A stretch of 64,000 nt of DNA from Candidatus Omnitrophota bacterium (GCA_028707125.1 JAQTUX010000002.1:272355-336354); one strand, 5' to 3'. Positions 42,128 to 64,000 are shown, numbered from the stretch's first letter. The notes: generated by a model from the letters alone, not told the origin. Numbers and translations: made by a program.

Positions 42128-43915
42128 TTATCCTATTTCCTGGAGGGAATATAATTGCTTGTATAGGCCGTTTTGACCCAGCAGTTCTTCGTGGCTGCCC
42201 TGCTCAACTATTCTGCCCGCGTCAAGCACGATGATCCTGTCCGCGCTCCTCACGGTTGAAAGCCGATGGGCGATAATAAAAACCGTCCTGCCGGCAATAA
42301 GCGTATCCAGCGCCTCCTGCACTATCCTTTCGGACGTGCTGTCCAGCTGAGAAGTGGCCTCATCCAGAATAAGTATGGGCGGGTCCTTAAGCAACGCCCT
42401 TGCTATGCATAAACGCTGTTTTTCGCCTCCTGATAACTTAGCCCCCCTGTCTCCGATAAGCGTATCATACGCGTCGGGAAGCGACTCTATGAACTCATGG
42501 GCATGCGCCTTCTTTGCCGCCTCCATGATCTGAGCGTCTTTCGCGTCCTTCCTGCCGTAGGCAATGTTCTCCCTTATCGTATCGTTAAAAAGTATTGTTT
42601 CCTGGGTAACAATGCCCATCTGCCCCCTGAGAGACCTCAAGGATACGCCGCGTATATCCACGCCATCAATAAGAATACGGCCGCGGCCGGGGTCGTAGAA
42701 CCTCGGCAATAGATCGACGAGGGTGGACTTGCCTACGCCGCTTTTGCCTACTATCGCGAGCACCTCTCCCTTCTTGATCTCTATGTTGATATCCTCAAGC
42801 ACCGGCTGTGAGCCGTAGCTGAAATTGACCCCTTCATACACTATCTTATGCTTGATGACTGCCAGCAAGGGCGCTTGCGGCCCTTCCGCGACTGTGGAAA
42901 CAGTATCCAGCACATCGTAAACCCTGCTTGAAGCCACCAGCGCCTGCTGGTTTAACGTGCTGACCTGGCTCAACTTTTTAAGCGGCCTGATCAGAGAGAA
43001 AAGCGAACCCAGGAATAAGCCGAACACGCCGAAAGAGATCTTCCCGGAAATCACATCTTTGCCGACCCATGCCAGGATAAATACGCCGAATATTACGCCG
43101 ATCAATTCCGTCGCCGGGCTCAACAAGAGCGTGCGCTTGATGGACTTCATTGACAGCTTATAATAACCCTGATTCTGGCTTCTAAACTTCTCTATTTCAT
43201 GGTCTTCCATGCAAAATGCCTTCACTATCCGCGCGCCGCTTATCGTCTCAACTAAAAGCGAGTTTATATCCGCCATCTTGTCCTGGGAGCGCCGGGAGAT
43301 CTTACGCAGCACCTTGCCGACCTTAATGATGGGCAGCGCGACCATGGGAAGAAGCAAAAGCGATACTAAAGCCAGTTTCCAGTGTATATAGAATATGGTG
43401 AAGGAAAAAACAACCACCAGAAACGACTGATACACCAGGTCCGTCGTGCCGTAGGAAAGGGCGTTCTCCACCAGCTTCACGTCATTGGTGATCCTGGAAA
43501 TGAGCTCGCCTGTGCGCTTCTTGATAAAATACTCCAGCGATAAGCCCTGGATCTTCTCGTAAAGGCGGTTACGGATATCGCGCACGCACAACTGCCCTAT
43601 ATCGGACATATAATAGGAATATAAGAAATTAAACAGGCCCTTTAGTAAAAATAAAACGGGCATGATCAGGATGATGATCCTCAGCAACTCCATCTGGGAC
43701 ATAGAGTTAATAAGCGAGATCAGCTTCTCCATGCCGGAAGGCAGCCCCACAGGGAAAACGATCTTGCCGTTATTGAAGACCTTGTCCACTACGGGCACAA
43801 ACATGGCGATAGAAACCCAGTCAAATAAGCTGGAAATCGCCATAAACAATACGGCTAAGCCGAGAGTCCCTTTATGCGGCCTGAGAAAACGCAAAAACCT
43901 CATATAATCTTTCAT
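42128..43915 (-). CDS. ABC transporter, fused permease/ATPase (MsbA-like lipid exporter family)
   Basis: 595 aa. Six-TM N-terminal domain, Walker A GKSGVGKST, ABC signature LSGGEKQR, Walker B ILILDEATS. Divergent from the lpxB pair. Confidence 0.8.
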   Translation of the reverse strand: MKDYMRFLRFLRPHKGTLGLAVLFMAISSLFDWVSIAMFVPVVDKVFNNGKIVFPVGLPSGMEKLISLINSMSQMELLRIIILIMPVLFLLKGLFNFLYSYYMSDIGQLCVRDIRNRLYEKIQGLSLEYFIKKRTGELISRITNDVKLVENALSYGTTDLVYQSFLVVVFSFTIFYIHWKLALVSLLLLPMVALPIIKVGKVLRKISRRSQDKMADINSLLVETISGARIVKAFCMEDHEIEKFRSQNQGYYKLSMKSIKRTLLLSPATELIGVIFGVFILAWVGKDVISGKISFGVFGLFLGSLFSLIRPLKKLSQVSTLNQQALVASSRVYDVLDTVSTVAEGPQAPLLAVIKHKIVYEGVNFSYGSQPVLEDINIEIKKGEVLAIVGKSGVGKSTLVDLLPRFYDPGRGRILIDGVDIRGVSLRSLRGQMGIVTQETILFNDTIRENIAYGRKDAKDAQIMEAAKKAHAHEFIESLPDAYDTLIGDRGAKLSGGEKQRLCIARALLKDPPILILDEATSQLDSTSERIVQEALDTLIAGRTVFIIAHRLSTVRSADRIIVLDAGRIVEQGSHEELLGQNGLYKQLYSLQEIG

Positions 43916-43976: not shown

Positions 43977-44897
43977 ATGCCTGACAAAATTAACATAGCC
44001 GTGATAGGGGCCGGCCGGCTGGGCAGGCTGCACCTGCGGAAATATAAAGAAATTGGAAACGTCGGCCTGGCAGGGGTATGCGACGTTGACGGGCAAAAGG
44101 CCGACTCCGCCGCCTGCGAGTTCTTAACGCGGGCATTTCACAACTACAGAGAAATACCCCAAACCGTGGACGCGGTAAGCGTAGCCACCCCTACCTCAAC
44201 GCACTACGAGGTTGCCGAATATTTCCTTAAACGCGGGGTACACTGCCTTGTGGAAAAACCTATCACGCTGACCCTCAAAGAAGCGGACGCGCTGGTCAAG
44301 ATCGCCAGGAACAATAAGGCCATACTCCAGGTGGGCCACGTGGAAAGGTTTAATTCCGCCTTTGCCGCGGTCAAGGATATGATCAAAGAGCCCAAATTTA
44401 TAGAGGCGCACCGGCTTTCTCCCTTCCCCAACCGCTCCCTGGACGTAGGCGTAACGCTGGACCTTATGATACACGATATAGATATCATTTTAGGGTTGAT
44501 AAACTCCCCCATAAAGAGGATAGACGCCGTAGGCGTTAAAGTGCTGAGCGAATATGAAGACATTGCCAACGCGCGTATCAGTTTTAAGAACGGCTGCGTA
44601 GCCAACCTTACGGCCAGCAGGGTATCGGAGGAATGGATGAGAAAGATCCGCATCTTTCTGCCGCAGGCCTACATCTCCCTTGATTACAAAGCGGCGGAGG
44701 CGACCCTCTACACGAAAAAAGGCGGCTCCATATCCAAACAAGACCTGCCCATTGAAAAGGAAGAACCCCTGAAGAAAGAATTGGAGTCATTTGTCCACTG
44801 CGTCGCTCATAAATGCCAGCCCCTGATATCCGGGAAGGAAGGCCGGCAGGCGCTGGCTGTGGCGTTGAAGATCCAGAAGAAGATACGCGATGGCTGA
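43977..44897 (+). CDS. Gfo/Idh/MocA-family NAD(P)-dependent oxidoreductase (candidate GnnA-like UDP-GlcNAc 3-dehydrogenase)
   Basis: 306 aa. N-terminal Rossmann (IAVIGAGRLGRLH) and the …EKP… Gfo/Idh/MocA motif. Its position directly upstream of and overlapping lpxB is the only basis for the GnnA suggestion. Confidence 0.6.
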   Translation: MPDKINIAVIGAGRLGRLHLRKYKEIGNVGLAGVCDVDGQKADSAACEFLTRAFHNYREIPQTVDAVSVATPTSTHYEVAEYFLKRGVHCLVEKPITLTLKEADALVKIARNNKAILQVGHVERFNSAFAAVKDMIKEPKFIEAHRLSPFPNRSLDVGVTLDLMIHDIDIILGLINSPIKRIDAVGVKVLSEYEDIANARISFKNGCVANLTASRVSEEWMRKIRIFLPQAYISLDYKAAEATLYTKKGGSISKQDLPIEKEEPLKKELESFVHCVAHKCQPLISGKEGRQALAVALKIQKKIRDG

Positions 44898-46029
44898 CAA
44901 AAAGATAATGATAGTTGCCGGCGAGGCATCCGGCGATATGCATGCCGCGCACCTGATAAAGGCGCTCAGGGAACTTGAGCCGTCGGCGCAATTCTCCGGC
45001 CTGGGCGGAGAACGCATGGAACAGGCGGGGGCGCGCGTCTATTACGACCTCACCAGGATCGCGGTGGTAGGATTCCAGGAAGTATTAAGAAACCTGGGGA
45101 AATTCCGAGGCGCGTTCAAGCTGTTCCTCAAAGAAGCCCGGGCGATCCGGCCTGACTGCGTTGTGCTGGTTGACTATCCGGGGTTTAACCTCGCGCTGGC
45201 GAAACAACTCAAGCGGTTAAAGATAAGGACCGTCTATTACATTTCCCCGCAGGTCTGGGCCTGGCACAGGGGACGGGTAAAGGCGATACGCAAATTCGTA
45301 GATAAAATGCTGGTGGTATTCCGGTTTGAAAAGGAATTCTACGAAGAAGAAGGCATTGAGGCGGAATACGTGGGCCACCCCCTGCTTGACATAGTCAGGC
45401 CGTCCATGAATAAAGAAGAGGCGTTCACCCGTCTCTGCCTTTCCTTTAAAAGAATAACCGTGGCGCTCCTGCCCGGCTCAAGGCAGCAGGAGGTAAAGAA
45501 ACTGCTGCCTGTCATGCTGGAGGCGGCAAAGTTAATAAATAAAACAATACCTCCCACGCAGTTCGTGATACTAAGATCCGAGGCGGTAGCAAAAGAAATA
45601 TTTGAGGGGGCTATCTCCAGATCCGGCTTACGGGTAAGCCTGCTTGAGGGCAATACATACGACGGAATAAATATAGCCGATTTCTGTATCGTTGCCTCGG
45701 GAACGGCGACCCTGGAAGTAGCTATAATGGAAAGGCCGATGGTAGTGGTTTACAAGACCTCCCTGCTTACCTCATTTATCGCCAGGTGCCTGGTCAGGAT
45801 ACCGGATATCGCGCTGGTAAACGTGGTCGCCGGAGGGCGCATCGTGCCCGAACTGATACAGTCAGACGCGACAGCGCAAAAGATCGCCAAAGAATCGGTG
45901 GGCATCCTTTCCGACCCGGAAAGGATCATATCTATCAGGCGCCAGCTGCAGGAAATAAAAGAAATGCTCAAACCCTACGGCGCGGCGCAAAGAGCGGCAA
46001 AGATTATCGTTGATTTCATACACCCCTGA
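44890..46029 (+). CDS. lpxB: lipid-A-disaccharide synthase
   Basis: 379 aa. GT19-family pattern (MIVAGEASGD…, …VDYPGFNL…, …YISPQVWAW…). Confidence 0.85.
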   Translation: MADKKIMIVAGEASGDMHAAHLIKALRELEPSAQFSGLGGERMEQAGARVYYDLTRIAVVGFQEVLRNLGKFRGAFKLFLKEARAIRPDCVVLVDYPGFNLALAKQLKRLKIRTVYYISPQVWAWHRGRVKAIRKFVDKMLVVFRFEKEFYEEEGIEAEYVGHPLLDIVRPSMNKEEAFTRLCLSFKRITVALLPGSRQQEVKKLLPVMLEAAKLINKTIPPTQFVILRSEAVAKEIFEGAISRSGLRVSLLEGNTYDGINIADFCIVASGTATLEVAIMERPMVVVYKTSLLTSFIARCLVRIPDIALVNVVAGGRIVPELIQSDATAQKIAKESVGILSDPERIISIRRQLQEIKEMLKPYGAAQRAAKIIVDFIHP

Positions 46030-48821: not shown

Positions 48822-49511
48822 CTATTTTATCTCCGCGCTCAGTATTACTGCCTCGGCGATCTGCCGCATTGATTTCCTGCTGTCCATTGAATGCCGCTGC
48901 ATTACTTTGTATGCCTCTTCCTCCGACAGCCCCTTCTGCTTCATTAATATCCCTTTTGCCCTTTCAATAAGCTTGCGGCTCTCAAGCTCCTCCTGAATGA
49001 CCTTGGTCTTTACCATCAGCTCGGTATTTTCAATGACCAGAGCCGCCTGGTTTGCCACCGTGGTCAATATCTCGATCTCGCTCTCTGTAAATTTATGCGG
49101 CTTTGAAGTATACAGGTTGAGCGCGCCTATGGCCTTATTCTTGACCATCATCGGGACGCACAAAAGCGACACCAGGCCGTCTTTCCCGGCGATATCTTTA
49201 AACTTGTAGTCCTTGTCTTCAAGGACATTATAGACCGTGCGCGGCTTCTTGCTCAGGACAACCTTGCCTGCCACGCCTTCGCCGATCCTGAGCGGCCCCT
49301 TTTTGTTGTATCCTTCCGAAATTGACTGGGACGCCCTTATGGCCAGCACCTTCTGCTTTTCATCTATCAACATAAGCGAACAGACGTTTGAGCCCATCGC
49401 CTGGGCGGTGACAGTGACGATCAGCTTCAAGATATCCTCTAAATAAAGGTCGGAGGTGATCGCCTTGCCTATCTTATAAAGCGCCTCTATTTTATCCTTT
49501 GTCTGAGCCAT
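48822..49511 (-). CDS. GAF-domain plus ANTAR-domain RNA-binding antiterminator
   Basis: 229 aa; N-terminal GAF-like region and a C-terminal ANTAR helix pattern (…EELESRKLIERAKGILMKQKGLSEEEAYKVMQRHSMDSRKSMRQIAEAVI…). Confidence 0.7.
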   Translation of the reverse strand: MAQTKDKIEALYKIGKAITSDLYLEDILKLIVTVTAQAMGSNVCSLMLIDEKQKVLAIRASQSISEGYNKKGPLRIGEGVAGKVVLSKKPRTVYNVLEDKDYKFKDIAGKDGLVSLLCVPMMVKNKAIGALNLYTSKPHKFTESEIEILTTVANQAALVIENTELMVKTKVIQEELESRKLIERAKGILMKQKGLSEEEAYKVMQRHSMDSRKSMRQIAEAVILSAEIK

Positions 49512-56036: not shown

Positions 56037-57044
56037 CTACGATATCTGGCGGCAGGAATCCCTTACCACCAACTCCACCGGCAGCCGCACCTTTTTCACC
56101 CTGGCAGCGCCTTCGCTGATGTATTTCCTGAGTTCCTTCACCGCCTCCTGCGCCATAGCGGCAAACGGCTGCCTTACCGTAGTGAGGGCGACCTTGCCGT
56201 AGAGCCCGGAAGGATCATCGTCAAATCCGATAATTGAAATATCTTTCGGCACATCCAGCTTTCTTTCGTATATAACGTTTATCGCCTCAAGCGCCATAGA
56301 GTCAGAGGCGACGAATACCGCCGTAGGGGGATGGCCCAGATCAAGCAGCGCCTCCATCGCGGTGCGCGCCGCGCCGCGCGAATAGTCCGCCTTGATAACG
56401 TAACCCTCATTGTATGCTATATTGCCACCCTCAAGCGCCCGCCTGTACCCCTTAAGGCGCTCTGAGGCCGCCTGGGTTATCAGGTCGCCGGTAATATGCG
56501 CTATTTTCTTATGCCCCAGATCTATAAGGTATTTTACCGCCGTATACGCGCCTTTCTCATTGTCTATGGCAATGCAGCTTACGGCAAGGTCCTGCACAAA
56601 ATTATTTATTACGACCGCCGGGATATTCTCTTTCAGCGCCGATTCAAGCTGGCCCCTGTTCTTGATCACATCGGCGAATATCACCCCTGCCACTGAACCG
56701 GTGCTTAGAAAAGAGCCTGAACCGGTAATGTGCAGCAGCAGGTCAAACTTCATCACGTCGCACATCGTGCCCACGCCCTTTATTATCTCCAGGGCATAAT
56801 AAGAATAAAATATCCCTTCATAATGCGGGATAACCAGGCCTATGGCGTTGGCCTCTCCGCGCGCCAATGCCCTGGCAGCCGCGGAAGGCATAAACTTAAG
56901 GTCTTTTATCGCCTCTTCGATCCGCGCCTTGCTTGCCTTGCTTACCGGCCCGCTTTTATTAAGCACCCGTGAAACCGTGGTGATAGACACCCCACAGGCG
57001 CGCGCCACATCTTTAATTGAGATCTTCTTTTTGGAGGGACCCAT
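56037..57044 (-). CDS. LacI-family transcriptional regulator
   Basis: N-terminal HTH …IKDVARACGVSITTVSRVLN… and a periplasmic-binding-protein-like effector domain. Confidence 0.85.
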   Translation of the reverse strand: MGPSKKKISIKDVARACGVSITTVSRVLNKSGPVSKASKARIEEAIKDLKFMPSAAARALARGEANAIGLVIPHYEGIFYSYYALEIIKGVGTMCDVMKFDLLLHITGSGSFLSTGSVAGVIFADVIKNRGQLESALKENIPAVVINNFVQDLAVSCIAIDNEKGAYTAVKYLIDLGHKKIAHITGDLITQAASERLKGYRRALEGGNIAYNEGYVIKADYSRGAARTAMEALLDLGHPPTAVFVASDSMALEAINVIYERKLDVPKDISIIGFDDDPSGLYGKVALTTVRQPFAAMAQEAVKELRKYISEGAARVKKVRLPVELVVRDSCRQIS

Positions 57045-57057
57045 ATGATACGAAGGG

Positions 57058-58236
57058 CTATCTTACAATGTCGCCTGCTTTTATCTCCCTGGTTGACTGC
57101 AGTATATCTGCCGCCGAAATTGACTTGCGCGTCTGTATGACCCTTGCCGTGCCTACGCGCTCGCCGTTCTGATAAACCTCAAAATCCATTCCGATGCCGA
57201 CCCCCGCGTCTTCTCCGATGTCAATGACTACAAAATTATGCTCCACATCAACGGCGGCGATCCTGCCCACCATCTCTTTGCCGGACACCTGTATGCCGGC
57301 GGCATCGGGAGCGTGCACTACAATGGGCGAGAGCTCAACCGCCTTCTCGTCGGTCTTAGCCGCTTCGCTGCCGGCCGGACCGCCTTTGATCCTGGAAAGC
57401 TTCTCGTCTGAGGCCTGCAGCGCGGTCCGCTTTTCCATGGCTACGGTCTCAACATCCTCAACCTTATCCTTCAATACCGCTTTTTCTTCCTCAATATTTA
57501 CTATCTTTTCCTGCAGCTTCAATTTCGCGTCAACCGCCAGTTTAAGCTGCCTTCTCAAAACCCCGTTTTCCTTCCTTATTTCATTGACCTGCGCTGTTAT
57601 GGCCTGCTTATCGTTCTTCTCCCTGACCAGCTCCGAACTCAACGAATCAAGTAATTTCTCATTGTAGTCGTAACGCCGCTGGAGGTCTGAATTCTTATGC
57701 TGAAGGTTCGTCAATTCCAGCTCAAGCTCGGTCTTCTCCTTTGTAAGCTCTTCTATGTGCAGCCGCAGTTTTTTATATTCGTCCTTGACATTGCCGAGAT
57801 CAAACTCCAGGGCCGCCTTATCTTTAAGCACGCTTCCCCAATATTGATCGCTTACTGAAGACGGCGCTTCGGAAGAGCCCATACCCGCGGAACGCGAAGA
57901 AACAGGCGCCTTCGGCTTCTCCTTCAATCTCCGGACCAGCTCATCCCGCTCCCTGGCTACAATGTCATATTTAGACCTGAACTCGCCCTTCTCCCGCTCC
58001 GCGCTGTCCAATTCCTTCTGTATAGCGTTAACGCGCTCCTGAAGGCTGTCTTTTTGCTTCTTTATGATTTCGGCATTTTGCCGCAGCTTGCCCTCCTTAA
58101 GCCCCCAGGCCTCCCTCTCTTCCTGATATTCCCTCAACACTGCCTGCTTTTCATTATTGAGCTTGGCTGCGAATAAAATAGAAATGAGCGTTAGTATGCC
58201 TAATATGACTATTATGATTTTTGACTTCTGGTCCAT
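57058..58236 (-). CDS. membrane-anchored coiled-coil protein with small C-terminal beta-rich domain
   Basis: Start MDQKSKIIIV (58236), preceded by AAGGGGG. Single N-terminal TM segment, about 250 aa of heptad-rich charged coiled coil, and a C-terminal …GRIAAVDVEHNFVVIDIGEDAGV…EVYQNGERVGTARV… domain of unknown family. Confidence 0.45.
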   Translation of the reverse strand: MDQKSKIIIVILGILTLISILFAAKLNNEKQAVLREYQEEREAWGLKEGKLRQNAEIIKKQKDSLQERVNAIQKELDSAEREKGEFRSKYDIVARERDELVRRLKEKPKAPVSSRSAGMGSSEAPSSVSDQYWGSVLKDKAALEFDLGNVKDEYKKLRLHIEELTKEKTELELELTNLQHKNSDLQRRYDYNEKLLDSLSSELVREKNDKQAITAQVNEIRKENGVLRRQLKLAVDAKLKLQEKIVNIEEEKAVLKDKVEDVETVAMEKRTALQASDEKLSRIKGGPAGSEAAKTDEKAVELSPIVVHAPDAAGIQVSGKEMVGRIAAVDVEHNFVVIDIGEDAGVGIGMDFEVYQNGERVGTARVIQTRKSISAADILQSTREIKAGDIVR

Positions 58237-58246
58237 CGACCCCCCC

Positions 58247-59461
58247 TTACTGTGCGAATACCCTGCGCACAATTAAACTTGCCGCGCCAACCGCAACGGC
58301 ATTCTCCGCCAGGTCAGAATAAACTATCTTCAAATCGGCCGTCATTTCTTTAAAAGCCCATTCATTTACCGCGAAACGCAGCTTGGTCAGAAATAACTCT
58401 CCGGCCTCCTCAAAACCGCCCCCTATTATAACCATATCGGGATTAAGCAGATTGACCAGGAAGGCGGTCTTTATCCCCAGGCGTATTGCCCCCTGCTCTA
58501 TGAGTTCGCAGGCGAGCGCGTCCTTTGCCTTCGCCGCCTGGAACACGCTCCTCAAGGAAAGATTATTTATATCGCCCTGGCAGAATTCAACCAGCCGGCT
58601 CTCCCTCTCCTGGACCATCTTCCTTGCCTCTTCAACTATGCCCAGATCCGCTTCCCAACGCTCGATCAGGCAGGACTCAGCGAAAACGCAGGGAGATTTT
58701 TTAGCGGCAGATGGATTGTGCACGGATATCTCGCCGGCAAAACCGCCTGAGCCGGTATAAATGTCGCCTTTTATCATTATGCCGCAGCCCACGCCGGAAA
58801 ACATGAACATGGCATTTTTACAGCTGAGGTCCTTTCTCGCCCACTGCTCCGCGAAACAGGCGCAGGTAGAATCATTCTCCACGAAAACCGGAAGGTCAAA
58901 CTCTTTCTCCAGGGCGTCCCTTAAATTGATGTTCAGGCCCACGTAGTTATAACCGCCGCCGTTGCGCTGCGGCCAATGCACGGAACCGCTTTTTTTATCT
59001 ACGAGTCCGGCGATGCCTATGCCCAGCCCCTTTATTTTATCCGCGTAACTTTTTGCCTTAAGTAAAAGTTCCCTGATCAAATTTATGCTGCAGTCGGCTG
59101 CCGCCTGGGCGGAGAGCGGCACTTCCTCCGTTTTCGCCCTCGCGACAATATTGCCCTTCAGATCCACAAGCACGGCAACGCTGTTAAAAAGATTGATACC
59201 CACTCCCACGGCATACGCGGCATCGGGATTCAGGTCCAGGAGCACCGGGCGCCTGCCGCCCTCGGATACATCCAGCGTTTTTTCAAAGACCAGTCTTTCT
59301 TTTAAAAAAGAATCTATATAATTTGAGACCGTAACTACATTCAGCCCTATATGTTGAGATATCTCCGGGCGCGACAAAGGGCCCATCCGCCTCAATGTTT
59401 CCAATATAGAGATATTACGCCGTTCTCTTTCGGATAGGACCTCGCTATCTAAAGTTTGCAA
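58247..59461 (-). CDS. ROK-family transcriptional regulator (N-terminal wHTH plus sugar-kinase-like domain)
   Basis: 404 aa; N-terminal …ILETLRRMGPLSRPEISQHIGLNVVTVSNYI… HTH. ROK body with …GVGINL…, CxCGxxGC-like Cys/His zinc motif (…FSGVGCGIMIKGDIYTGSGG…). Confidence 0.75.
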   Translation of the reverse strand: MQTLDSEVLSERERRNISILETLRRMGPLSRPEISQHIGLNVVTVSNYIDSFLKERLVFEKTLDVSEGGRRPVLLDLNPDAAYAVGVGINLFNSVAVLVDLKGNIVARAKTEEVPLSAQAAADCSINLIRELLLKAKSYADKIKGLGIGIAGLVDKKSGSVHWPQRNGGGYNYVGLNINLRDALEKEFDLPVFVENDSTCACFAEQWARKDLSCKNAMFMFSGVGCGIMIKGDIYTGSGGFAGEISVHNPSAAKKSPCVFAESCLIERWEADLGIVEEARKMVQERESRLVEFCQGDINNLSLRSVFQAAKAKDALACELIEQGAIRLGIKTAFLVNLLNPDMVIIGGGFEEAGELFLTKLRFAVNEWAFKEMTADLKIVYSDLAENAVAVGAASLIVRRVFAQ

Positions 59462-59589
59462 ATTCCCGGCACCCCGTCCCTCTTATGCCGCGGCTGAAAA
59501 TCATAAGAAGGGCCTTAAAAAATATTGTAAAAATAACACCTTCAATAGTTTATCACACTATTTTCAGTTTTGTCTATATTTTTTTTATT

Positions 59590-61158
59590 TTATTGCACGT
59601 CGATTATCGCGATCGCCCTGCTGGCTGCTCCCGATGGGTTCACGGCAACTATATTCACGACCTTTGTGCCTGCCTGGCCGTAAGTTACGCTGAATTCGGG
59701 AGAATCGGAAAGCGGTTTTTCACCGGGTATCTGGCCTGACCATAGATAACCGGTCTTCTGAGGGAAACATCCGGCGGAGGAAATAAAGGCGGGGACGGAA
59801 AAATCTACCTCTTTATTTTTCGGTATGGGGATCGGGGAGGCCTTCAGGTCCAATATCGGTATCGCGGCCTGCCCGGTTTCCTGCCTTAAACAGGCATCAA
59901 GGAACGTCTTCAGGTTATGTTCTATGGAGGAACCGTTATTGATCTCTGAGATCCTCAGGCCGGCCTCATCTTTAATGTCCGAAGACATCTCTTCATCCAT
60001 TGACAATATCTTCCCATAATGATCAAGCGCGCATTTGTGATCATTATTCCATTGGCATATAAGCCCCAGATGATAAAGCGAAAGCGGATAGTACGCGCCG
60101 GCGGCAGGCCTCGCGATTATGCCGCTAAGAAGCTCTCGGCCGCGGCCCTGGTTACCGACCACGTAAAGGTTTATGATCCCAAGCTTGAACTCCGCCTCAT
60201 CCAGATGCCTGCCTTTGGGAAAATTATAGAGCAGTTTCTCAAACTCTACCGCCGCCGGGACAAGGAGCCCGGCGTGCTGTAGATTCTTCGCTCTGAGATA
60301 CAACAGATCTTCGCCGGGGCTGCCCGCGCTGATCTCATTGAGCATCGCGAAGACCTTCTCTGAATACTCCACGTCAAAATTCTCCCCTTCGCAGGAAAAC
60401 CTTTCAACTATCCCGGATAACTCTCCGGCCGCGTCCTCTTTTTGCTGCGGCCTTATCCTCTCTATAAATGAATCAAACAATGCCTGCGCCAGTTCCACGC
60501 TGCCTTCCTCAAGCGCCTGCAGCGCCTTCTCTTTTATCTCATCAGGGGACTTGACGGTTGAGTCCACCTTCCGGGCATACAGGGCATAGACCGATCTCGC
60601 GGAGGCATCCGCCCCTTCCTGTTTAAGCCGGTCCGCCATACCTCTAATGCTTTCAATATCTTTTGTCTGCTGAGAATAATGCTTTAACGCGGAGAATAAT
60701 TCTTCAAGTATTGTGTTGTCTTCGGCGCCCCCTTCGCGTTTCAGGAATTTCCACTTAAGAAATAAGGCTTCGGGCAGAAGGATATCGGACCTGGAAATAT
60801 GCTCGATGGCGAATTGGAGGTTCTCCGTAAATTCTTTCCTGAAGTCATCGCCCTTGTTAAAATATTCGTCCCACATCTTATTTGTCTCCAGAAAGCCGAA
60901 CTGCGTAAAGCGCGTCAGGGCGATAAAATACGCTACGGCCGCCTTCTCGGATTCCTTTGCCTCAGGCAGCATGCTTTTCAAAAAATCCACAAACTCATTA
61001 TACTGGTTGAGCCCGAAATACACCCCCCTCAACTCATCTATGCCGTCCAGGAGCTGCGCCCGTCCGGCATCAGCGGTAAAGCCGCGTTGAGACAGGCAGA
61101 GAAACAGCGCCAGCGCCGAGGCCAGAACTATCTTTTTCTTTCTTTTTCCGTTATCCAT
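59590..61158 (-). CDS. secreted hypothetical protein
   Basis: 522 aa with a signal peptide (…ALALFLCLSQRGFTADA). Helical N-terminal two-thirds, possibly TPR-like. The beta-rich C-terminal ~70 aa (…FSVTYGQAGTKVVNIVAVNPSGAAS…) suggests an Ig/PKD-like module. Confidence 0.4.
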   Translation of the reverse strand: MDNGKRKKKIVLASALALFLCLSQRGFTADAGRAQLLDGIDELRGVYFGLNQYNEFVDFLKSMLPEAKESEKAAVAYFIALTRFTQFGFLETNKMWDEYFNKGDDFRKEFTENLQFAIEHISRSDILLPEALFLKWKFLKREGGAEDNTILEELFSALKHYSQQTKDIESIRGMADRLKQEGADASARSVYALYARKVDSTVKSPDEIKEKALQALEEGSVELAQALFDSFIERIRPQQKEDAAGELSGIVERFSCEGENFDVEYSEKVFAMLNEISAGSPGEDLLYLRAKNLQHAGLLVPAAVEFEKLLYNFPKGRHLDEAEFKLGIINLYVVGNQGRGRELLSGIIARPAAGAYYPLSLYHLGLICQWNNDHKCALDHYGKILSMDEEMSSDIKDEAGLRISEINNGSSIEHNLKTFLDACLRQETGQAAIPILDLKASPIPIPKNKEVDFSVPAFISSAGCFPQKTGYLWSGQIPGEKPLSDSPEFSVTYGQAGTKVVNIVAVNPSGAASRAIAIIDVQ

Positions 61159-62405
61159 TCCTGATCCGGGTCTTGGAAGAACTTCTTCAGCACGTAATAA
61201 CTCTTTCTGGGCACGCGCTTATTCAACCCCGAGTCTGATTCTTCGGATAGAGCGACTATCCCGAACCACTCCTCATTCATATTCATACCGCCGGGGACTT
61301 CAATGTCAAAATAGTATTCGCCCTTAGACCAGTTTGAGCCGGTATCGTGCGCCGGCCACCCCTGAAGGTCGTATTCGTTATGTTTCCACCATTCGTCATT
61401 CCACTCAAACATGACCCCTCCCACGCAGTTGCCCGCGCCCTTGGGGCCTCCAGCCAGATTTTCGTAGATCTGCCTCCACTGTGACTCAAGAAAGAACGCC
61501 TGCATGCCTTCGTCTTCCTCTTTAAGCTTGGCGTTATACGCGTCGGCGCCGAACTCGGAAATGATCACCGGCTTGTCAAAGGTAAATTTAAGCGAATCGA
61601 ACAGATTACCGAATGTCTTGCCCCTGTAGATAACGCAGGCGATAAGGTCAATATCGGGGCAGATCCCGGCGGAGGCAACCTCCAGATACTTGAGCTCTCC
61701 GTTGCCGAGGGCGACGGGATGATCAGGGTCAACCTGTTTTATTTCCCTGGCTATCTCGTTAATGAACGAATAATAAATCCTTGCCCGCTCAAGCTGCCTC
61801 TGCCATAGATCCGGTATCGCGTCTATTTCAGGCGATGACCAGGGGTTTACCTGGCCGTTGAAGGAATAATTGTTTTCGTTACCCAGGACCCACATAAGTA
61901 TACCGGGGGTATCCTTATAAGTATTTACCATCTCCAGCACCTGTTTCTTTATGCGTCCCCTGAACTCTGCATCCGCGTATCCCAGGGGATATTCCCAGAA
62001 CCCCGCCCACGAACCCATTATGGTATATATGCCGTGATCATTATACAGGCCGCTGATAAGCTCTTTTACCACCTCGGCGTGAGGCCCGGGCTGATAAAAG
62101 CGCACCGTGTTTATCCCCGCCGCCTTCATCAACTCAGCGTCTTTTTTCCAGGGCTTATTCGGATCGGAGAAAAAGTCATATTCGTGGTTCTTGCCGACAG
62201 GAACGGGAGAATAACAGACGCCCCGGACAACAAACGGCGCCCCTGCCGCGATCAACCGGTAGTGCCCCTTGCGGTCCTTGTGTATAAAAACATCGCCTTT
62301 TCCCTTACAGCCCGCGAGGGATAGAAACAGGCAGGCTGCAAAGAATAAAATCCCTCCTTGCAGCCTGCCCCTGATCCTTAAACCATCACTCATACTTGAT
62401 CTCAT
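61128..62405 (-). CDS. glycoside hydrolase, clan GH-A TIM-barrel (GH5/GH2-like), lipoprotein
   Basis: 425 aa; signal peptide/lipobox (…LSLAGCKG). Catalytic acid/base …WVLGNENNY… and nucleophile …VIISEFGAD…; …FEWNDEWWK… aromatic motif. Confidence 0.65.
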   Translation of the reverse strand: MRSSMSDGLRIRGRLQGGILFFAACLFLSLAGCKGKGDVFIHKDRKGHYRLIAAGAPFVVRGVCYSPVPVGKNHEYDFFSDPNKPWKKDAELMKAAGINTVRFYQPGPHAEVVKELISGLYNDHGIYTIMGSWAGFWEYPLGYADAEFRGRIKKQVLEMVNTYKDTPGILMWVLGNENNYSFNGQVNPWSSPEIDAIPDLWQRQLERARIYYSFINEIAREIKQVDPDHPVALGNGELKYLEVASAGICPDIDLIACVIYRGKTFGNLFDSLKFTFDKPVIISEFGADAYNAKLKEEDEGMQAFFLESQWRQIYENLAGGPKGAGNCVGGVMFEWNDEWWKHNEYDLQGWPAHDTGSNWSKGEYYFDIEVPGGMNMNEEWFGIVALSEESDSGLNKRVPRKSYYVLKKFFQDPDQEWITEKERKR

Positions 62406-63585
62406 CCAGATAGAATGTAGCTCCCTCTGGATTCACATCCAGGTTTGTTGACCAGACAAAACCCCCTAATATATAGGAAAGGTCTTTGCCCTTCAGGTCT
62501 ATGGTATATTGCTTCCATTCCGTGCTGAGCATGACCGGGCCTATGCCGGCGACATCGGAATCGGAATATTCATTACTGACACCGCCTACCTTAAATTCCT
62601 CGATCCTCTCGGTGCCCTTCTCGCCGCGCGCCCAGAAGGTAAGCTTTGTGGCGTTGGAAAGGTCAAAGCCGGCGTCAATAGTGCCCCAGTTGTTAGCGGG
62701 GTTAAGCCAGTAAACGCCTACCCAACGCTGCCCCTTGGTCGCCTTGTTGCTGTAAACCACCTTTATGCAAGTATCCCCGAGGTAGGGGTTTTCCCTGGAA
62801 TCGTTGACAAGCATTACGTCTTCGGAGCTGTAATCGCCCATGTAACCCGAAGGCACAAAATGATTATTCAAAGACGACTTATCGGTATAGACATAAAACG
62901 GCATAACCTCCTTATTCCTGGTCTGCGGCTTAATGTTGGGGTCAGCGACATATTTTATGTCATCAAGATAAAACACAACTCCGTTGGGAGACAGGTCGGT
63001 ATTGGCAACCCAGCAAAACCCGCCGGCTATAGAGGTGAGGTCCCTGCCCGCCAGGTTTATGGCGTACTCCTTCCAGGTGTTGGTCAATTCTATGGGGCCT
63101 GACTCCACCGTGGCGGAATCAGGATACAGCCCTTTGATCCCGCCGACGACAAACTTCTGGATGATCTCGCCGCCCTTCTCGCCGCGCGCCCAGAAGGTAA
63201 GCTGGGTCATGCCGGTCAGGTCAAATCCGCCCTTCTTGGTCCCCCAGTTGTTCGCGGGATTCTGCCAGTAAACGCCTGCCCAACCCTCATTCTCCGGGGC
63301 ATACGACACCTTTACACAAGTGGTGCCGGAACGCGGGTTATCCATACTGTCTTCCACAAGCTTGACTACGCGGCCTATAACGGAGACCGTCTGGTTATCG
63401 CCCATATAACCGGAAGGTATGTAATGGTTATCCGGGGAATTTTTGTCCGCGTAGACATTGAATGTCTTGTAGCTTGCCGCTTCGTCTTTCAGCGCCGCCG
63501 CGCCTTCTTCGGCAGCGCGGACTGGATCCGGCGCGGAAACCGAAACCGCGAGAAACATAGACAACGCAACTGCTAAAAACTTCAT
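62386..63585 (-). CDS. secreted protein composed of two tandem copies of an uncharacterised ~170-aa beta-rich domain (candidate carbohydrate-binding module)
   Basis: 399 aa with a signal peptide. Repeat 1 (YADKNSPDNHYIPSGYMGD…GVYWQNPANNWGT…LTFWARGEKGGE…FYLDDIKY) and repeat 2 (YTDKSSLNNHFVPSGYMGD…GVYWLNPANNWGT…LTFWARGEKGTE…FYLDEIKYE) align end to end. Confidence 0.55.
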   Translation of the reverse strand: MKFLAVALSMFLAVSVSAPDPVRAAEEGAAALKDEAASYKTFNVYADKNSPDNHYIPSGYMGDNQTVSVIGRVVKLVEDSMDNPRSGTTCVKVSYAPENEGWAGVYWQNPANNWGTKKGGFDLTGMTQLTFWARGEKGGEIIQKFVVGGIKGLYPDSATVESGPIELTNTWKEYAINLAGRDLTSIAGGFCWVANTDLSPNGVVFYLDDIKYVADPNIKPQTRNKEVMPFYVYTDKSSLNNHFVPSGYMGDYSSEDVMLVNDSRENPYLGDTCIKVVYSNKATKGQRWVGVYWLNPANNWGTIDAGFDLSNATKLTFWARGEKGTERIEEFKVGGVSNEYSDSDVAGIGPVMLSTEWKQYTIDLKGKDLSYILGGFVWSTNLDVNPEGATFYLDEIKYE

Positions 63586-63603
63586 ACTGCACCTCCTTTT
63601 TTT

Positions 63604-64000
63604 TCAGTGTTTGCTTAAAAGATCCTTGAATTCCCACGGCTCATCCCTAAGCCATGAGTCCCTGTATAGAAAATAACTCTTCCTTAAATGCCGAAGGAAC
63701 GGGCTTAACGCCCCGCTGCCCTGTCCGCAGACGCCCAGCCATTCCTCATGCATATACCCGTCGGGGAACGGCCCGGTGAACAGGCCCTGCCTGTCGTGGA
63801 TGAACGGCTCGTATGCCTTCCACCATTCATCCAGCCATTCAAATACGATGCCGCCCAGAGAGTTGCCCGCGCCCTCGCTGAATGCCGTATTGTTTTCTAT
63901 GTCCTGCCAGCAGCCCCTGTGATACTCCGCCTGAAGCCCTTCGGCGTCACTAAGCGATCTGCCTTTGGCGTACGCGGGGCAGCCGTATTCACTGATAAAT
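63604..64000 (-). CDS. glycoside hydrolase, GH-A clan, paralog of 61128-62405 (partial; N-terminus beyond window end)
   Basis: Hand translation of the minus strand gives …FEWLDEWWKAYEPFIHDRQGLFTGPFPDGYMHEEWLGVCGQGSGALSPFLRHLRKSYFLYRDSWLRDEPWEFKDLLSKH*, matching the …FEWNDEWWK…EEWFGIVA…RKSYYVLKKFF… C-terminus of the upstream GH. Truncated by the window, so absent from the ORF track. Confidence 0.6.
   Translation of the reverse strand, partial: FISEYGCPAYAKGRSLSDAEGLQAEYHRGCWQDIENNTAFSEGAGNSLGGIVFEWLDEWWKAYEPFIHDRQGLFTGPFPDGYMHEEWLGVCGQGSGALSPFLRHLRKSYFLYRDSWLRDEPWEFKDLLSKH

Follow-up and report, generated by a model that had tools for sequence, protein, structure and literature searches.

A duplicated protein of predicted carbohydrate-binding fold between two paralogous clan GH-A enzymes in a conserved Omnitrophota gene cluster

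What is a secreted protein of no recognizable family doing between two related glycoside hydrolases (GH), in a phylum whose diet is an open question? Most Omnitrophota are predicted to be sugar fermenters, and the phylum has no pure-culture isolate (PMC10066038). The question is posed by a 64,000-nucleotide stretch of a Candidatus Omnitrophota bacterium (GCA_028707125.1 JAQTUX010000002.1:272355-336354; hereafter the window, numbered from its first letter), in which the genes of the cluster described here all lie on the minus strand, arranged in tandem over positions 56037–64000. Among them is the gene for a 399-residue protein that carries two copies of one domain—the tandem-domain protein. 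With modest confidence, we read the region as the distal half of a phylum-wide Omnitrophota operon for glycan capture, hydrolysis, and import; we are somewhat less sure of its likeliest substrate, a β-1,3-linked β-glucan. The operon offers a small set of expressible proteins—one binder, two enzymes, and one solute-binding protein (SBP)—that could show which glycan is harvested. It is conserved like a housekeeping locus and adjoins the giant genes that drew attention to the phylum.

The tandem-domain gene occupies 62386–63585 and is preceded by an 18-nt spacer (63586–63603) holding a Shine–Dalgarno-like AAGGAGGTG. Its product begins with a Sec-type signal peptide (residues 1–24; MKFLAVALSMFLAVSVSAPDPVRA/AEE) without a lipobox, continues through a low-complexity linker, and ends in two domains of ~170 residues, repeat 1 at residues 42–212 (62950–63462) and repeat 2 at residues 230–398 (62392–62898), both delimited by self-alignment and both modeled as β-sandwiches. 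The original prediction, made from the sequence alone, had described an internal tandem duplication, and BLASTP of residues 1–215 against 216–399 bears this out (93 of 174 positions identical, 53%; E = 2e-66). All four motifs that it quoted—YxDKxSxxNHxxPSGYMGD, GVYWxNPANNWGT, LTFWARGEKG, and FYLDxIKY—fall within the repeat-versus-repeat alignment. Because two repeats are present in every homologue examined, and because orthologues are more alike (59–68% identity) than the two repeats of one protein (53%), the duplication is ancient. A Candidatus Omnitrophica metagenome-assembled genome encodes an identical (100%) hypothetical protein, and ~5000 clusters at 90% identity are homologous, the best of them 61–68% identical and nearly all labeled Omnitrophota; none of these clusters has a Pfam domain or an informative name.

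Neither the whole protein nor a single repeat had a Pfam match, even with E relaxed to 10, in agreement with the earlier view that no known carbohydrate-binding module (CBM) or PKD family could be assigned. Sequence searches of the PDB with the single protein, or with an orthologue profile (A1), gave chance-level matches only. A diverse single-domain profile of 37 domains reached CBM4-2 (E = 5e-5) and CBM30 (E = 1.7e-3), over the C-terminal half of the domain. The suggestion that the domain might be novel stands insofar as it has no Pfam model, but it is not wholly uncatalogued: the NCBIfam choice-of-anchor J model (NF038128), the sole curated sequence model to match the tandem-domain protein, does so in 51 of 54 orthologues at E ≤ 0.01 (best E = 6e-11). 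For the window protein itself the score is 29.5 bits where the curated threshold is 30; the match covers residues 306–396, in the C-terminal half of repeat 2, and the protein differs from the class in lacking the C-terminal sorting signal that names it. Choice-of-anchor J is a family of no known function, and belonging to it would leave the protein unexplained.

Structure prediction points toward carbohydrate binding. An AlphaFold2 model built with 54 orthologues in the alignment consists of two β-sandwiches (predicted local distance difference test [pLDDT] 83.9), and its top Foldseek match in the PDB is BtSGBP-B (7kwb; E = 1e-7), a surface glycan-binding protein (SGBP) of Bacteroides. For single domains, the best matches were CBM8, CBM30, and CBM11 (target-normalized template-modeling [TM] scores 0.55–0.66), with CBM4-2 variants at 0.47–0.50 and identities of 12–16%; the predicted domain has the jelly-roll fold of CBM4, CBM11, and CBM30, at target-normalized TM-scores of 0.47–0.66 to 1v0a, 7t7y, 1wmx, 2c24, and 2y64. 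Foldseek also lists jelly rolls that are not CBMs, namely reelin, meprin MAM, and FlaA1. By profile and predicted fold, the repeat appears to be a remote member of the CBM4/11/30 β-sandwich superfamily without a Pfam model of its own, and the protein is a putative carbohydrate binder. Its binding-loop residues are nearly invariant across the phylum.

The domain belongs to a much larger family. A profile search of 1.84 billion cluster representatives, with clustering at 50% identity, found 2958 relatives (728 at E ≤ 1e-30) with one to eight copies per protein, occurring as small single-domain proteins as well as within large ones. Pfam Glyco_hydro_17 was present in 15 of the 63 multidomain relatives scanned; the mapped fusions carry two or three domain copies alongside the GH17 part, directly after it in five of six. 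In P0256, for example, the GH17 part extends to residue ~389 and matches the GH17 β-1,3-glucanosyltransferase 4wtp (E = 2.9e-33), and domain copies follow at 421–587 and 621–780. The Pfam CBM30 threshold is exceeded by six relatives, and in the eight-copy P0241 the CBM30 match falls inside copy 6. Genomic context and names of the GH17-fusion proteins were uninformative. The earlier guess that the domain is CBM-like thus gains support from the predicted fold, the weak CBM4-2 and CBM30 profile matches, and the recurrent fusion to GH17, with binding itself a prediction.

On either side of the tandem-domain gene lie paralogous clan GH-A enzymes, one of them truncated by the window, as had been proposed. 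The downstream gene (61128–62405) encodes a 425-residue (β/α)8 hydrolase, here GH425, predicted to be a lipoprotein from its lipobox (LSLAGC); 13 of 51 orthologues also have a lipobox. The upstream gene enters the window only as a tail of 131 codons plus stop (63604–63999), the remainder of a large hydrolase lying past the window end. GH425 contains LGNENN, ISEFG, and FEWNDEWWK, the tail contains FISEYG...FEWLDEWWK, and the two are 34% identical (E = 1e-15). A full-length orthologue of the upstream enzyme (780 residues, L004:7487-9829; here GH780) is 35% identical to GH425 (E = 2e-57) in an alignment that spans the entire barrel. GH780 orthologues, of 747–780 residues, join a TPR-containing N-terminal half to the GH-A barrel. 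As annotated, the first 20 nt of the GH425 gene (62386–62405) are shared with the end of the tandem-domain gene, and several GH425 orthologues (P0124, P0126, and P0129) begin with unusually long and strange extensions (e.g., NKQGKNIGHKV...), probably produced by gene callers reading through a hairpin region described below, the true start being a downstream Met before the signal peptide.

To which family do these enzymes belong? Published accounts call both "GH2" and leave the gene between them unmentioned, and NCBI names the 425-residue protein "GH2 TIM barrel-domain containing". Pfam Glyco_hydro_2_C does match GH425 (3e-7; 30.3 bits against a cut-off of 21) and the GH780 orthologue (55 bits), but the N-terminal jelly roll and Ig-like domains of GH2 are absent. 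Neither Glyco_hydro_2_N nor Glyco_hydro_2 gave a Pfam match in GH425 or the GH780 orthologue; only ~25 residues of β-hairpins precede the GH425 barrel, and the N-terminal half of GH780 shows only weak Pfam TPR matches.

Our own assignment rests on PDB sequence and fold matches. GH158 enzymes are the only clearly significant PDB sequence relatives (phmmer): 9oro, or GH158(Pro), at 2.8e-9 for GH425 and 4e-13 for the GH780 orthologue, followed by BuGH158 (6pal) at 4e-5 and 7e-10. The GH425 match to 9oro is limited to chain residues 59–278 of 424. Pfam Glyco_hydro_72 also matches GH425 (1e-6; 28.3 bits against a cut-off of 25.9), over profile positions 24–146 of 314 only. The AlphaFold2 model of GH425 is a TIM barrel of alternating strand and helix elements (pLDDT 80.3; predicted TM-score 0.82), after which come two strands and a helix, with no C-terminal Ig-like domain. 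Its top 11 Foldseek matches are GH158(Pro), GH157 (LaGH157), GH72 (Gas2, rank 7), and BuGH158, followed by GH50, GH2, GH1, and GH42; all matches listed among the top 50 are GH-A barrels. By sequence and modeled fold, both hydrolases most resemble GH158, then GH157 and GH72, families that all act on β-1,3-glucans.

The predicted catalytic residues are strictly kept. E177 and E284 of GH425 pair with 9oro chain residues 135 and 221, the glutamates of its GNE and TEFG motifs, which, taking an inferred offset in the 9oro numbering, suggests Glu177 (GNEN, after strand 4) as acid/base and Glu284 (SEFG, after strand 7) as nucleophile. N176, E177, and E284 are invariant in 51 GH425 orthologues. Across GH780 orthologues, GNEN is kept in 83 of 83 loci and xE[FY]G in 84 of 84, with FEWxDEWWK kept in 83–84. 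Both proteins are putative hydrolases. A separate observation concerns residues 342–383 of GH425, a ~40-residue insertion after barrel strand 8 that is highly conserved (W350, H353, D354, Y364, Y365, D367, and N375–F381) and modeled at pLDDT < 50; by analogy with GH158(Pro), it could be a mobile active-site lid. Many GH425 orthologues (P0128, P0130, P0131, and others) also bear a precomputed Pfam label, PF26410.1, which was not recovered on rescanning of these proteins against Pfam.

How far the arrangement extends was gauged by tblastn of 14 cluster proteins against 85 fetched loci (L001–L085). Wherever the contig suffices, order and strand are invariant: a PilZ protein, a CUT1-type SBP (SBP_bac_1), two BPD_transp_1 permeases, the hydrolase of ~780 residues, the tandem-domain protein, the hydrolase of ~430 residues, and a TPR protein, with ROK, coiled-coil, LacI, and ribonucleotide reductase (RNR) genes downstream in most related loci. 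Identities are near those of RNR (67–74%): 65–78% for the SBP, 69–91% for the permeases, 54–77% for GH780, 59–68% for the tandem-domain protein, and 56–66% for GH425. Gene calls and Pfam place PilZ, SBP_bac_1, and both BPD_transp_1 genes upstream in L001 and L003–L005, and from such orthologous loci the upstream half of the operon is probably present beyond position 64000 here as well. In a scan of one genome per species, 258 genomes encode a relative, nearly all of them labeled Omnitrophota. On these comparisons, the locus, with one gene order in about 80 species, is conserved across the phylum and is not a variable accessory one. The compact polysaccharide-utilization module of the original prediction gives way to something larger: the cluster, to judge by related loci, extends past the window into an ATP-binding cassette (ABC) importer and PilZ, and it includes ROK and LacI regulators.

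The tandem-domain gene is also set apart by what follows it. In the window, a terminator scan and RNA folding identify a GC-rich hairpin at 62370–62329, with a 17-bp stem (nine GC pairs) that begins 16 nt past the tandem-domain stop codon and a tail GTTTCTATCC; a 110-nt segment containing it has a minimum free energy of −42.7 kcal/mol. When the 90 nt past the stop were folded and scored against background windows of the same locus, the median z was −3.05, and 80% of 84 related loci scored z < −2. Applied downstream of 13 other cluster genes, this test put 0–8% of loci below −2 for 12 of those genes and 26% for RNR. The position of the hairpin is conserved and its sequence differs between loci; ΔG is ≤ −20 in 79 of 83 distinct loci, and a T-rich tail (≥5 of 10) is found in 48 of 83. 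The pattern is terminator-like, suggesting an intrinsic terminator or an mRNA 3′-end stabilizer inside the cluster; the copy in the window may affect RNA stability or translation and not termination. This gene-specific feature yields a testable prediction about expression stoichiometry, namely that more of the tandem-domain protein is made than of the downstream enzyme.

Beyond GH425, the cluster continues with the further secreted protein that had been remarked on downstream (59590–61158). It has 522 residues, a signal peptide, weak TPR-like matches in a predicted helical region, and a PKD-like C-terminal domain; its gene keeps its place in every locus of sufficient length, but the protein evolves fast (28–38% identity). 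No similarity was found between it and the TPR-containing N-terminal half of GH780, so paralogy of the two is not supported. Next come a ROK-family protein with an N-terminal winged-helix region (58247–59461; Pfam ROK 5e-39), a probable sugar-responsive repressor, and, at 56037–57044, a predicted sugar-responsive LacI-family regulator (Pfam LacI and Peripla_BP_3), both held in synteny; the gene after LacI encodes a class II RNR. Between the two regulators, here and in most related loci, lies a gene for a 404-residue coiled-coil protein (57058–58272) with weak SMC-like matches and a small β-rich C-terminal domain.

These parts suggest a division of labor. After Sec export, the tandem-domain protein would act as a noncatalytic, bivalent glycan binder, functionally like Bacteroides SGBP-B. 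The two paralogous GH-A enzymes, presumably retaining and one of them a lipoprotein here, would cut the bound polymer to oligosaccharides, which the ABC importer would bring in for fermentation. ROK and LacI would provide sugar-responsive control, and the hairpin would raise the abundance of the binding protein above that of the downstream enzyme. The system would be periplasmic or surface-located. A laminarin-, curdlan-, or callose-like substrate is proposed because three independent lines converge on a β-1,3 linkage: the affinity of the hydrolases to GH158, GH157, and GH72, the GH17 fusions of the domain, and the resemblance to BtSGBP-B. At 9–23% identity, none of the three proves specificity. 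The importer does not sharpen this choice. In the PDB, the SBP comes closest to proteins that bind oligosaccharides (of chitin, maltodextrin, or xylo-oligosaccharide type), and since these score alike, SBP specificity cannot be read from sequence.

Several observations weigh against this interpretation. The hydrolases share only 15–23% identity with characterized enzymes, clan GH-A folds are promiscuous in substrate, and GH425 lacks the Ig-like C-terminal domain of GH158. The match to BtSGBP-B, with a low whole-protein TM-score of 0.25 at 9% identity, amounts to a shared fold class and number of domains and does not demonstrate homology. CBM4, CBM11, and CBM30 bind assorted β-glucans and xylans, and the fold therefore leaves the ligand of the tandem-domain protein unfixed. 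The GH17 fusions belong to relatives outside this orthologous group, the cluster has no gene for an ABC ATPase, and the window hairpin lies within coding sequence, over the GH425 signal-peptide codons, with a T tail that is weak. Housekeeping-like conservation across a phylum is unusual for a nutrient-specific glycan locus, and a universal β-1,3-glucan source for groundwater and sediment Omnitrophota is not evident. In a phylum whose supposed hosts are diverse, binding loops that hardly vary argue for one constant ligand, which is to us the most puzzling feature of the locus.

Could the proteins instead serve predation? In that account, their targets are glycans in the envelope or matrix of prey or host cells, not β-1,3-glucan specifically; they work with a giant "archaeovorin"-type protein, and the released sugars are imported. 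The account overlaps the capture-and-import reading, from which it departs in the substrate and in a functional link to the giant gene. Giant genes do lie directly upstream of the PilZ–SBP genes in relatives: they encode 39,962 residues in L001, 19,579 in L004, and 30,556 in L005, at L001:1-577, L004:1-2460, and L005:1-2460, and 27 of 49 long loci have an open reading frame >1.2 kb that continues past their upstream edge. The association has been described before, with pilZ, binding-protein-dependent carbohydrate transporters, and glycosyl hydrolases conserved downstream of Omnitrophota giant genes (West-Roberts et al., bioRxiv 10.1101/2023.11.21.568195). A 2026 preprint reports "two GH2 enzymes" (genes _128 and _130) beside a 147,155-residue protein and does not discuss _129, which is presumably the tandem-domain gene. 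Both preprints interpret the neighborhood as cell-wall-degradation machinery. Yet prey are thought to be diverse, including archaea and bacteria, whereas the nearly invariant binding loops of the tandem-domain protein argue for one constant ligand; no sequence or fold match leads toward peptidoglycan, pseudomurein, or S-layer glycans; and the upstream giant gene is seen in relatives, the window stopping before that position. We regard a predation role as unlikely.

Less probable still is that the cluster remodels the cell's own envelope, with the GH-A proteins as transglycosylases on a self-made glucan layer and the tandem-domain protein as an abundant structural binder. GH72 and GH17 enzymes act as transglycosylases in fungal walls, and PilZ proteins commonly control exopolysaccharide synthesis. 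Gas2 of GH72 is among the top fold matches of GH425, Glyco_hydro_72 exceeds its Pfam cut-off, and the hairpin, as read from sequence, would imply high expression of the tandem-domain protein. Conservation is housekeeping-like, and the cluster sits amid core genes: the rest of the window encodes core metabolism and envelope functions (iPGM, MnmG, NadE, LpxB, an MsbA-like ABC protein, RpsB, ilv, PFK, and S-adenosylmethionine and S-adenosylhomocysteine enzymes), which places the cluster on the chromosome, among core genes, in a diderm. An SBP-dependent importer with ROK and LacI regulators, however, is typical of catabolic uptake and not of wall synthesis. No glucan synthase or glycosyltransferase was seen in the cluster, and none of these, nor any further carbohydrate-active enzyme, was seen in the remaining window genes.

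That the locus is no glycan system at all—the tandem-domain protein serving at the surface as an adhesin or a protein-binding module, with choice-of-anchor J (the sole curated sequence model to match it) and MAM-like jelly rolls as its kin, and the GH-like proteins being nonhydrolytic—has in its favor the choice-of-anchor J match and the non-CBM jelly rolls in the Foldseek list (such as reelin, meprin MAM, and FlaA1), but is very improbable given the invariant catalytic glutamates in both GH paralogues, the recurrent fusion of the domain to GH17, the profile matches to CBM4-2 and CBM30, and the sugar importer and regulators in the operon.

Two side observations come from the surrounding window. 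Genes at 43977–46029 (plus strand) and 42128–43915 (minus strand) encode the lipid-A disaccharide synthase LpxB and an MsbA-like ABC exporter; together they point to a lipopolysaccharide-containing outer membrane, so exported cluster proteins would be periplasmic or outer-membrane-associated. A GAF-ANTAR protein, an RNA-binding antiterminator-type regulator, is encoded at 48822–49511 (minus strand) among housekeeping genes downstream of the cluster.

What, then, does this analysis add? The locus type and its presence near Omnitrophota giant genes are already known in general terms. New are the prediction, from sequence and modeled fold, that the middle gene encodes a tandem CBM-like protein of a large GH17-linked family (~3000 clusters at 50% identity) without a Pfam model, which makes that family a candidate new CBM family; the reassignment, on similar grounds, of the "GH2" enzymes as nearer to GH158; and the extent of synteny together with the gene-specific hairpin. 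A bolder version of the glycan-capture reading, to which we give little credence as it stands, is that the repeat founds a new β-1,3-glucan CBM family and that the operon is the sole phylum-wide core feeding apparatus, coupled to giant proteins. Were it true, these ultra-small putative predators or parasites would all depend on one glucan, taken from attacked hosts or self-made, and the tandem-domain protein would be a major, abundant surface or periplasmic protein.

Comparison with known systems shows where the cluster fits and where it departs. With CBM4, CBM30, and CBM11, the predicted domain shares the jelly-roll fold and weak but significant profile matches (CBM4-2 and CBM30); it differs in that the window protein has no direct Pfam match and in its motifs PSGxMGD, WAGxYWQxPxNNWG, FWARGxxGGE, and FYLDDI, which are specific to the tandem-domain family. 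GH17 enzymes such as P0256, P0247, P0255, P0260, and P0264 contain the same ~170-residue domain, mostly as a tandem pair; profiles of the two window-family repeats match it at E = 1e-36 to 1e-61. There the domain is covalently attached to the enzyme, whereas in Omnitrophota a gene of its own encodes it, placed between two enzymes of another GH-A lineage; BLASTP detected no similarity between the GH17 domains fused to the repeat and GH425, so that a shared lineage is not supported. With GH158 (6pal and 9oro/9p25), at 20–23% identity, the hydrolases share the clan GH-A (β/α)8 barrel and the aligned NE acid/base and EFG nucleophile motifs. In GH158 the catalytic barrel is followed by an eight-stranded Ig-like domain (PMC13195107), whereas GH425 lacks that domain and carries the insertion at residues 342–383, and GH780 carries a TPR-containing N-terminal extension of ~400 residues.

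The closest functional parallel is the Bacteroides 1,3-glucan utilization locus (1,3GUL), which likewise combines a GH158-type endo-glucanase with a noncatalytic, duplicated CBM-like binder that sequence cannot place in a CAZy CBM family (PMC7157763 and PMC7974029). That binder, BtSGBP-B (7kwb), is specific for β(1,3)-glucan and consists of an Ig-like domain and two CBM-like β-sandwiches from an intragenic duplication, each of which binds laminari-oligosaccharides through three aromatic residues; structurally it is nearest CBM4, from which its sequence excludes it (PMC7974029). The Omnitrophota binder has neither the Ig-like spacer nor a lipid anchor, and identity is 9% to the Bacteroides binder and 15–23% to its enzymes. 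Two paralogous GH-A enzymes stand in place of a GH16/GH158/GH3 set. Import would proceed by SBP and ABC permeases, not by SusC/SusD: gene calls and Pfam found no TonB-dependent transporter, SusC, or SusD in L001 and L003–L005, and the 2026 preprint reports TonB-dependent receptor/sus clusters absent from its Omnitrophota collection. Finally, the Bacteroides locus varies between species, whereas its Omnitrophota counterpart is conserved phylum-wide.

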